From the NCBI GenBank assembly GCA_035688915.1, contig DASSMK010000346.1, positions 25,389-89,388 on the forward strand: DNA of 64,000 nt. Direction: 5' to 3'. Position numbers and translations under genes: made by a program. Under the pieces are notes generated by a model that was given only the letters and a program-made list of their open reading frames with translations, was not told the DNA's origin and did no database searches. This document shows, in pieces, positions 48,947 through 49,627 of this stretch. The DNA is from Thermoanaerobaculia bacterium. GTDB lineage: Bacteria; Acidobacteriota; Thermoanaerobaculia; Gp7-AA8. The stretch's first letter is position 1, and each line of letters starts with the position of its first letter.

Positions 48947-49055
48947 CGCCCACGTCGCATCGATCGGACCGTCTTTCCGCCCCGACACCGCACGTCCTCG
49001 ACCCTCCGGAACTTCTACCAACCATGGAATTCTCTGAGATCGTGCGAGAATCGAG

Positions 49056-49076
49056 GTGTCTAGTTAGTGTCTAGTT
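49056..49076. repeat. near-tandem 10-bp direct repeat GTGTCTAGTT-A-GTGTCTAGTT
   Basis: Read directly. It lies in the 680-bp non-coding stretch that also contains the 6-bp-arm inverted repeat GTCCGC-N8-GCGGAC (about 49088-49107). Confidence 0.4.
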
Positions 49077-49180
49077 CGCCCGCTAGAGATGTCCGCGGAT
49101 CGCTGCGGACACCCGCGATCATTGCAAGTCGAAGGAGGTTGGAGATGTCTGGAGACGAGACCGGGCACCGGGACCCCGCA

Positions 49181-49224
49181 TGGGGTTCAGGTGGTCGGGG
49201 GTTCAAATCCCCCCTGCCCGACCA
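49181..49224 (+). other. tRNA 3'-end fragment (T-arm GGGGG-TTCAAAT-CCCCC, acceptor 3' strand CTGCCCG, discriminator A, CCA); putative att site or island junction
   Basis: T-arm at 49197-49213, acceptor strand at 49214-49220, CCA at 49222-49224. No complementary 5' acceptor strand (CGGGCAG) is found within 95 nt upstream, so this is not a complete tRNA gene. Confidence 0.55.
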
Positions 49225-49598
49225 AACACAACCCCAATCCCATACATGCAGACGACGGCGATCGGCCTTCGGTCGCGCGCCTCGTCGCAAGCTTCGCATC
49301 GATGAAACGTGGGTTGTCCCGCCTGACCGTATCGCGGTCGGACGCCGTGCTCACCACCGGCGCACATTTCGTCGCGGCCAAGAGAGTGCTTATGGCACGC
49401 TTTCCGACGATCGCCATCCGCGGCCTCTTCGTTGCTCGGCGAATGCTCTGAAGGCGCCGCGCCAGGTATTTCCGAACACCCCTCTCCTCAACAGGAGGAG
49501 TGTTCTCTCTGGGTGATTTGATCGCTCCGACCGGCATGAGGGTAGGGAATCTTGCCTCGCCGTCACTCCTAGTAGCGTGGTATCTATGACAGCTGTCA

Positions 49599-49615
49599 GA
49601 TAACTAGAAATTATC
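49599..49615. promoter_or_regulatory. 17-bp palindrome-like site GATAACTAGAAATTATC (site B, copy 1)
   Basis: 12 nt upstream of the GTG start at 49628. The same site in reverse complement is at 53211-53227. Confidence 0.6.
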
Positions 49616-49627
49616 GAGGTAGCGATA

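Follow-up and report, generated by a model that had tools for sequence, protein, structure and literature searches.

What is the 3' part of a tRNA gene doing between two protein-coding genes, in a stretch of DNA that holds no tRNA gene? This question is raised by a 64,000-nucleotide stretch of contig DASSMK010000346.1 from a Thermoanaerobaculia bacterium (here called the window), in which a block at positions 48947-49627 contains the T-arm and acceptor end of a tRNA. The block lies between a CHAT-TPR gene, whose stop codon is at 48946, and an ATP-grasp-like gene that starts at 49628. A preliminary description of the window had read this block as a probable integration junction. That interpretation is supported by the identity of the tRNA fragment, by a conserved arm of DNA beside it and by pairs of intact tRNA genes and fragments in related genomes, and the fragment almost certainly represents the attachment (att) core of a genomic island at its right junction (attR). 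The arm also carries a ribosome-binding site and an ATG that reads into the fragment. It is proposed that these signals are the detached start of the island's own tyrosine integrase gene, which would be laid across the attachment site of the excised element (attP); on comparative sequence evidence this split start is considered fairly likely. Taken as a single statement, an attR core next to an arm that carries the integrase translation start is judged quite likely.

The tRNA fragment can be read directly. Positions 49195-49224 read GGGGG-TTCAAAT-CCCCC followed by CTGCCCG-A-CCA, and the T-arm and 3' acceptor strand with CCA reported previously are therefore real and match the 3' part of tRNA-Pro(GGG). 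The complete fragment is 45 nucleotides (nt) long and comprises the anticodon loop ATGGGGT, the 3' strand of the anticodon stem (TCAGG), the variable loop (TGGTC), the T-arm, the 3' acceptor strand, the discriminator A and the CCA end (Table 1). The GGG in the anticodon loop assigns it to tRNA-Pro(GGG), and its sequence is 100% identical to the corresponding part of intact tRNA-Pro(GGG) genes called by ARAGORN in L017, L020, L026, L093 and other related loci (loci used for comparison carry L numbers, and database proteins P numbers). Identity to the tRNA begins in the anticodon loop, at 49179/49180, and extends 13 nt beyond the CCA through the trailer AACACAACCCCAA, giving a 58-nt block that is matched at 100% in L017, L020 and L026. 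Because tRNA identity ends at 49179/49180, the crossover region is placed, by inference, in the anticodon loop.

The site does not hold a complete tRNA gene. ARAGORN finds neither a tRNA nor a transfer-messenger RNA (tmRNA) in the 64-kb window, and no complete cloverleaf with a paired acceptor stem is present at 49180-49224. The earlier statement that no 5' acceptor strand precedes the fragment stands insofar as no usable strand is present; it overlooked CGGGCAC at 49163-49169, which matches the 5' acceptor strand CGGGCAG in six of seven positions at a spacing that is wrong for a tRNA. This heptamer is part of the conserved island arm, and every copy of the window-type arm has it unchanged. 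It also sits within the 12 arm codons discussed below (as T-G-H-R), and may be a relic of tRNA sequence or a chance match. A 35-mer of the fragment occurs once in the window and in none of 100 shuffled sequences. The connection drawn in the preliminary description between the fragment's CTGCCCG and a hairpin at 715-736 is attributed to chance, as this 7-mer is found 19 times in the window against an expectation of 16 +/- 4.

The related genomes indicate how such a fragment arises. When one genome per species was scanned for the 29-mer GGTCGGGGGTTCAAATCCCCCCTGCCCGA, 111 stretches were returned, nearly all in metagenome-assembled genomes (MAGs) of the Thermoanaerobaculia/Acidobacteriota. Most of these lie within intact 77-nt tRNA-Pro(GGG) genes, as called by ARAGORN, and about two dozen are orphan fragments like that of the window. 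Intact tRNA-Pro genes and co-oriented fragments occur on the same contig at separations of 48 kb (OY970284.1), 44, 46, 31.6, about 36 and 5.6 kb, and some related contigs carry two fragments, which indicates tandem islands. Wherever a search with a hidden Markov model (HMM) found an integrase, a tyrosine integrase followed the intact tRNA (22 loci). Due to the several tRNA/fragment pairs on single contigs, some with tandem fragments, it is concluded that tRNA-Pro(GGG) is an integration hot spot in Thermoanaerobaculia; the spacings of up to 48 kb also place an island of at least 49 kb within the observed range. A smaller form is seen in L095 and L086 (DASUSN010000135.1, 208-218 kb), where two segments of about 4 kb lie in tandem 3' of an intact tRNA-Pro. 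Each ends with a window-type arm and a fragment, one of the fragments being without its anticodon-loop part. No cognate integrase was found beside the window-type arms in these two loci, and the segments are consequently read as integrase-less remnants; they look like decayed islands that have retained their att ends.

The DNA directly to the left of the fragment is the island side of the junction. The segment 49040-49179, here termed the right arm or P arm of island A, is 92%, 88% and 81% identical to the DNA directly upstream of the fragments in L059 and L095 (two copies), and the same arm type recurs in metagenome contig L113. Downstream flanks differ among the copies in the window, L059, L095 and L113, such that the island side is conserved and the outer side is not. 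The near-tandem 10-bp repeat and the inverted repeat with 6-bp arms that had been pointed out in this block are both present and are conserved features of the island end, not noise. The two direct repeats, GTGTCTAGTT, are probably arm-type sites to which the integrase is presumed to bind, since paired motifs in both arms are the layout of a lambda-like attP. Of eight related arm pairs, five have one motif variant paired in the right arm, at -132..-99 before the core, and again in the left arm, at +75..+90 after the tRNA end. Three of them have GCCTAGT, one has GTCTAA[C/T] (its right arm containing a single copy) and one has GTCTAGT, the last being found in a single MAG that combines the left arm of L013 with the window-type right arm of L059. 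The inverted repeat, GTCCGC-N8-GCGGAC, occurs in the same or nearly the same form in all five other copies of the window arm type and may serve as a promoter element or for protein binding. Hexamers resembling TACAAT are discernible in other arm types. Additionally, ACAACAACTTAG, found between the arm-type repeats and the core, about 25 nt beyond the CCA of the tRNA, is conserved in the left arms of otherwise divergent island subfamilies and may be a binding site for an accessory protein.

The translation signals of the arm gain their significance from the other end of such islands. In the window, the open reading frame (ORF) that begins at the arm ATG reads through 12 arm codons, MSGDETGHRDPA, and the core, translated as WGSGGRGFKSPLPDQ, before entering unrelated DNA. 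This ORF has no Pfam match and appears to be the detached head of an integrase gene, for which no function of its own is expected. The ORF leading out of the tRNA encodes, in L020 as well as in L004, a tyrosine integrase (Phage_integrase, 4e-27 and 8e-29, with SAM-like domains), which is followed by a DprA-like gene and then a PRTase gene. An HMM of the conserved part of the integrase places the gene after the core in all 22 loci, which fall into two frame classes relative to the core, f0 and f2. None of the 22 contains a stop between the core and the integrase domain, the frame being open from inside the tRNA. In the linker of about 140 codons, examined in 21 loci, there are no stops in the integrase frame in 21 of 21, compared to 40 and 125 in the other two frames; for the part of the linker upstream of a conserved internal NTG codon, the counts are 0, 22 and 98, and a shuffled linker would be free of stops with a probability of about 0.11 per locus. 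The linker sequences are strongly diverged and poorly conserved as protein. The linker behaves as DNA that needs to stay open and not as ordinary coding sequence, which fits a P' arm embedded in the ORF.

At the opposite end, most of the right arms inspected have an AGGAGG-like sequence and an ATG located 22-35 nt before the core, and this strong Shine-Dalgarno (SD) sequence and ATG are kept even where the arms have little other sequence in common. In seven of seven pairs located on the same contig, the arm ATG and the partner integrase are in the same frame, five in f0 (L108-L020, L103-L093, L001-L030, L018-L022 and L021-L088) and two in f2 (L046-L102 and L090-L011). The distance from ATG to core is 22 nt in f0 arms and 23 or 35 nt in f2 arms. 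A 1-nt indel immediately behind the CCA distinguishes the f0 from the f2 left arms, which are homologous, and the change in ATG distance is taken to compensate for this indel. The ATG of the window arm, at 49145, is in frame f2. In the short database ORFs P0002 and P0007, an arm of the f0 type is followed by a linker of the f2 type and the frames do not match, as would be the case at a tandem junction between heterologous islands. In database protein P0008, the N-terminal region of the integrase is called from an ATG in the anticodon loop (MGFRWSGVQIPPARPN...) with the core in frame f1; all three frames of the tRNA core are thus open (f0 and f2, and f1 in P0008). Taken together, the open frames, the SD and ATG in the opposite arm and the matching of frames indicate, on comparative evidence, that attP probably lies inside the integrase ORF. 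The best match of the integrase to a phage or plasmid integrase in the two collections searched has at most 27% identity.

The right side of the core also appears to derive from an island. Identity to L093, in which an intact tRNA is followed by an integrase, continues to 49242, and the DNA up to this position probably represents 18 nt of the f0-type left arm of a second island. From 49248 onward, the window is 80.7% identical at the nucleotide level to L072, at a position 3.4 kb beyond the tRNA of that locus. The segment is a remnant of a shosT-like gene that matches the last third of a 206-224-residue protein encoded 3.2 kb from the tRNA in L004, L020, L030 and L106. Its amino acid identity to the product of L004:3640-4260 is 75% over DAVLTTGAHFVAAKR... 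at the C-terminus, with a frameshifting indel in the alignment. PADLOC identifies L004:2583-3659 as ShosA (2.4e-90) and L004:3640-4260 as ShosT (1.5e-49), a pair that is intact in L004. The window holds no complete pair of ShosA (DprA-like) and ShosT (PRTase), only the frameshifted 3' third of shosT having been kept. The 18-nt left arm and the shosT remnant to the right of the core point to a second island of the same family (island B, int-shosA-shosT) that once followed the core in tandem and has lost about 3.2 kb containing int, shosA and the 5' part of shosT. The ATP-grasp/Ddl-like gene and the AAA_16 NTPase gene to its right are presumed to be cargo of island B, and GC content falls to 0.56-0.58 over 49-53 kb, the region of these genes. 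No repeat that closes the right end of island B is recognisable in the window.

Beyond this cargo, the window appears to return to the native chromosome. In L060, an intact tRNA-Pro(GGG) (135-211) is followed, 152 nt on, by a macB-like gene at 364 that has 83.6% nucleotide identity to window positions 56302-58799, and the macB, response-regulator and kinase block to the right of the core is orthologous to the genes beside this intact tRNA. Since L060 has its macB orthologue beside an intact tRNA-Pro, the window's HlyD/ABC/MacB operon and its sigma-54 two-component genes are probably the native flank of the tRNA-Pro locus. L060 has no hlyD or ABC ATPase genes between its tRNA-Pro and macB, unlike the window, reflecting either a deletion next to the att site in that lineage or a short MAG contig that was collapsed at a repeat.

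Several observations weigh against a start codon for the integrase in the arm, and they are best considered together with the explanation that they favour, namely that the fragment marks an ordinary attR and nothing else. On this explanation the integrase starts at an internal codon (the conserved NTG or the methionine of MPGF), the SD and ATG of the arm drive an unrelated short ORF or nothing, and the open frame is a product of GC-rich DNA and shared ancestry. GC content at third codon positions is 0.59 in the linker compared to 0.84 in the integrase domain, unlike ordinary coding DNA. About 60 codons before the domain, 21 of 21 loci have ATG, GTG or TTG, and never CTG. This codon is preceded by the conserved CAGACCATCG (for example, in the L020 linker) and lies within the peptide patch DHRE(V/M/L)GAG, suggesting a probable internal start or a site that acts at the DNA level; no consistently placed internal SD with a start was found in the linker, the conserved NTG being without a clear SD. 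Integrases as called in the databases are 374-390 residues long and start later still than the conserved NTG, as in P0005, which begins at MPGFSYD (390 residues), and gene callers use the arm ATG as the start of separate ORFs at attR (P0009-P0011). A true attP, in which a cognate arm, a core and a complete integrase lie on one contig, was not found in viral, metagenome or protein searches. The viral scan returned no matches, the metagenome scans returned none with the first pattern and only another attR, L113, with the second, and two protein searches yielded no full-length long form but only ORFs that are truncated, internally started, attR-started or mixed-frame junctions. The only contiguous example with matched frames, L046, was considered as an intact gene reconstituted in tandem and rejected, as its integrase is truncated and fused to unrelated sequence. 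Furthermore, a consensus scan finds no sigma-70-like promoter in the window arm (49040-49145), the window has no intact tRNA-Pro and no integrase of this island family, and the loci are phylogenetically related, such that the stop and frame counts are not independent and overstate independence. An ordinary, internally started integrase accompanied by an unrelated arm ATG is plausible in view of the conserved NTG and the later database starts. Against it stand the absence of stops from the integrase frame across strongly diverged linkers, the persistence of a strong SD and ATG in arms with little else in common, and the agreement of frames in all seven pairs, where an indel beside the core is offset by the ATG distance. 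Considering both sides, this simpler explanation is regarded as unlikely, though with a real share of the probability.

Two other explanations concern the nature of the junction itself. The window could contain the attP region of a single element that has lost int, shosA and the 5' part of shosT through an internal deletion and that either entered the chromosome by another route or is a plasmid. Island-type DNA is indeed found on both sides of the core (the arm at left; the 18-nt start of a left arm and the shosT remnant at right), and the right-hand segment has no fragment that closes it. The two sides nevertheless look like different islands, because the arm ATG is in frame f2 and the trailer that follows the core, CCAAACACAACCCCAAT, has the f0 form also found in L093 and L020; the block orthologous to the tRNA-Pro neighbours of L060 also fits a chromosomal locus. 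A single-element attP is therefore considered improbable. Less probable still, to the point of being hardly credible, is that the fragment gives rise to a functional tRNA-like RNA (for instance, a mini-tRNA formed with CGGGCAC, or a two-piece tmRNA to which it contributes the acceptor piece) or is a deletion pseudogene that arose without a mobile element. No Rfam family matches the window at its gathering score, and permissive settings yield only a partial tmRNA match to the T-arm and acceptor of 18.7 bits, far under the gathering score of 47; there is no Rfam tRNA match at the site even at E <= 10. CGGGCAC could pair with six of the seven acceptor bases and is conserved in all copies of the arm, yet the fold of the site is no better than that of shuffled sequences (z = -0.26). 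The alanine identity pair of tmRNA is G3-U70, and position 70 here is C, hence this pair is absent. The ARAGORN search, which covers permuted tmRNA, was negative as noted above, the sequence corresponds exactly to tRNA-Pro(GGG) in its 3' part, and a conserved island arm lies upstream of it.

The preferred reading, an attR whose arm carries the start of the integrase gene, suggests the following mechanism. Islands of this family would insert into the segment of tRNA-Pro(GGG) that runs from the anticodon loop to the 3' end. The island's own copy of the tRNA 3' part would rebuild the gene at the far (left) end, beside the tyrosine integrase, and the original 3' part would be displaced to the right end, where it is predicted to form the core of the attR now seen in the window, at the edge of an island of at least 49 kb. 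The P arm would contribute the two arm-type repeats, the inverted repeat, the ribosome-binding site, the ATG and the first 12 integrase codons. In the excised circle, the start in this arm would be joined across the core to the body of the integrase, and translation would proceed through the tRNA-derived core and the stop-free linker of about 140 codons, which would hold the P' arm sites, into the integrase domains. The peptide expected across arm and core is MS(G/R)D...WGSGGRGFK or ...GVQVVGGSNPPCPT. Integration would remove the start of the gene, and a long, efficiently initiated integrase would be made from the circular form only. When the island is integrated, the gene would have no start, or a shorter integrase could be initiated at the conserved ATG/GTG/TTG located about 60 codons ahead of the domain. 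The model presumes a promoter, translation across attP, two isoforms of the enzyme and the place where the left end of this particular island lies. On balance, it is somewhat more likely than not that a widespread tRNA-Pro island family of the Thermoanaerobaculia has the body of the enzyme encoded in one arm and its expression signals (promoter, ribosome-binding site, start codon) in the other, such that recombination itself switches integrase expression.

The proposed layout can be compared with known systems. In classical islands and prophages that target tRNA genes through lambda- or P4-like tyrosine integrases (the Islander/TIGER type; PMC4383910, PMC7192596), the target likewise extends from the anticodon loop to the 3' end, the gene is rebuilt at one end and the 3' fragment displaced to the other. 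The integrase beside the intact tRNA, the repeat pairs in both arms and the tandem stacking at one tRNA are also shared. Unlike in these islands, the integrase frame here extends back through the P' arm and the core, with the ribosome-binding site and ATG in the opposite arm. This is reminiscent of the SSV-type ('type I' or 'suicidal') integrases of archaeal viruses and plasmids, in which attP lies within the integrase ORF and which have been described as restricted to or exclusive to Archaea (PMC7253208, PMC8371274). As in that type, attP would lie in the integrase ORF, the tRNA-derived core would be translated and integration would detach an N-terminal piece. Integration of an SSV-type element leaves two inactive pseudogenes, whereas two inactive halves are not what is found for the tRNA-Pro island integrases: only 8-13 codons and the expression signals would be detached. 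The SAM-like and catalytic domains and a conserved N-terminal region remain together at attL, an internal start codon is conserved and the hosts are bacteria. The tRNA-Pro island integrase thus works like the SSV type in one respect and is not a member of it, its Pfam matches being the generic Phage_integrase and SAM-like domains. There is a modest preference for viewing the layout as a bacterial counterpart, apparently not self-inactivating, of the archaeal 'suicidal' integrases.

Bacterial systems offer further comparisons. In the RAP44-like temperate phages of Riemerella anatipestifer, attP corresponds to nt 25-43 of the integrase gene, and insertion in the 3' end of tRNA-Ser splits this gene into a 43-bp head at attR, which has the start codon, and a truncated integrase at attL (PMC12169736). 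Both cases would involve a bacterial integrase gene split by attP at a tRNA 3' end. The RAP44-like phages differ in host (Bacteroidota), in target (tRNA-Ser) and in having the core directly after the start, whereas about 140 codons of low conservation with the P' arm separate the core from the domains here, and large cargo islands are seen with no phage genes. In ICEclc, as PMC5812530 describes the work of Sentchilo et al. (2003), an outward promoter (Pcirc) at the end distal to the integrase comes to lie ahead of the integrase gene only once the element has been excised and circularised, raising expression for reintegration; ICEclc, too, targets a tRNA gene. The tRNA-Pro islands would share with it an outward-facing expression signal at that end. 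In ICEclc the promoter alone crosses, intB13 keeping a promoter, ribosome-binding site and start codon, whereas the ribosome-binding site and start codon appear to cross in the tRNA-Pro islands. In the integration-dependent immunity of mycobacteriophages (Broussard et al. 2013, as outlined in PMC9262239), the repressor is split at attP and loses a C-terminal degradation tag; the attP sites concerned are said in that outline not to need arm-type sites. The present case would be alike in its tRNA target, in an attP within a coding gene and in a gene product that changes with integration. It differs in that the integrase is the split gene here, the N-terminal start is what is lost and repeat pairs are present in both arms. 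What the comparison of sequences adds for the tRNA-Pro islands is a right arm that appears to contain the translation start of an integrase gene spanning attP.

On the left side, the 49 kb preceding the core is presumed to be one island, island A. Elsewhere in the window there is no second or degenerate copy of the core and no left-arm motif pair; because no tRNA, second core or left arm is found in these 49 kb, the left end of island A is outside the window or lost. The cargo includes an Ssp-type DNA phosphorothioation defence cluster on the minus strand (12528-21307), with SspB and SspC assigned by PADLOC and a double-HATPase gene after the SspD candidate. The genes at 23569-30204 are probably further defence or modification cargo, and a NB-ARC-TPR protein is also encoded on this side. 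Of the two large CHAT-domain proteins, the second is encoded directly beside the right arm, and in L095 (4791-7319) a CHAT protein is likewise encoded directly beside the same arm type in an unrelated island copy. The region 31000-36000 has a GC content of 0.70-0.735 compared to about 0.65 elsewhere, and contains long ORFs that overlap on both strands and have no Pfam matches. Near the left end of the window are two paralogous short tyrosine recombinases, 4 kb apart, that belong to another type and are undetected by the HMM of the island integrase. They are about 48-51% identical to the product of a gene located 5.6 kb from the tRNA in L005, and an identical copy of the recombinase at 892-1746 is present on a 1.7-kb Logan contig (L112) from SRR25158187.

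Table 1. Features of the window, from the attachment site outward (positions count from the first letter of the 64,000-nt window).
Feature	Position	Strand	Remarks
Displaced 3' part of tRNA-Pro(GGG)	49180..49224	+	linear positions 33-77 of the 77-nt gene
att core identity block	49180..49237	+	tRNA part plus 13-nt trailer; 58-63 nt at 100% identity (BLAST, alignment)
Right arm (P arm) of island A, integrated on the left	49040..49179	+	conserved 140 bp upstream of the fragment
Two direct repeats	49056-49065 and 49067-49076	+	probable arm-type integrase-binding sites
Inverted repeat GTCCGC-N8-GCGGAC	49091..49110	+	direct reading
Shine-Dalgarno AAGGAGG (49132-38), 6-nt spacer, ATG (49145-47)	49132..49147	+	proposed integrase translation start
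ORF, 123 codons	49145..49516	+	arm codons, core, then unrelated DNA
Frameshifted 3' remnant of shosT-like (PRTase) gene	49248..49451	+	nucleotide and amino acid similarity to relatives
ATP-grasp/Ddl-like gene	49628-50704	+	presumed island B cargo
AAA_16 NTPase, 829 aa	50708-53197	-	presumed island B cargo
HlyD / ABC ATPase / MacB-like efflux operon	54051..58798	+	Pfam; L060 comparison
Island A, minimum extent	1..49179	.	left end not found in window
Large CHAT-domain proteins	36581-39862 and 45020-48946	+	second is a 1308-aa CHAT-TPR protein
Mrr_cat + AAA protein, 1235 aa	26497-30204		
Carbamoyltransferase	24761-26500		
Two-domain PLD-family protein	23569-25020		
Cysteine desulfurase	20015-21307	-	Ssp-type cluster
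SspB/DUF4007	19122-20018	-	PADLOC 1e-78
SspC	15703-19233	-	PADLOC 2e-249
PAPS-reductase-like SspD candidate	14895-15827	-	Ssp-type cluster
Double-HATPase protein, 783 aa	12528-14879	-	
Short tyrosine recombinases (about 200-215 aa)	892-1746 and 4939-5586	-	paralogous

The tRNA fragment as an att site is textbook in kind. Its use lies mainly in marking where a defence-rich island of at least 49 kb ends on the right, and in showing tRNA-Pro(GGG) to be a busy hot spot in an uncultivated class of acidobacteria. The arm beside it has consequences for annotation, as gene callers will mis-start integrases of this layout and call spurious ORFs at attR (such as P0009-P0011), and an SD and ATG that read into a tRNA fragment are a possible end marker for island-finding software. 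If the integrase is translated across attP, integration and excision would rewire its expression without a regulator, which could explain efficient reintegration after excision followed by quiescence. An architecture that has been treated as an archaeal peculiarity would then be placed in Bacteria, where one bacterial phage provides a precedent.

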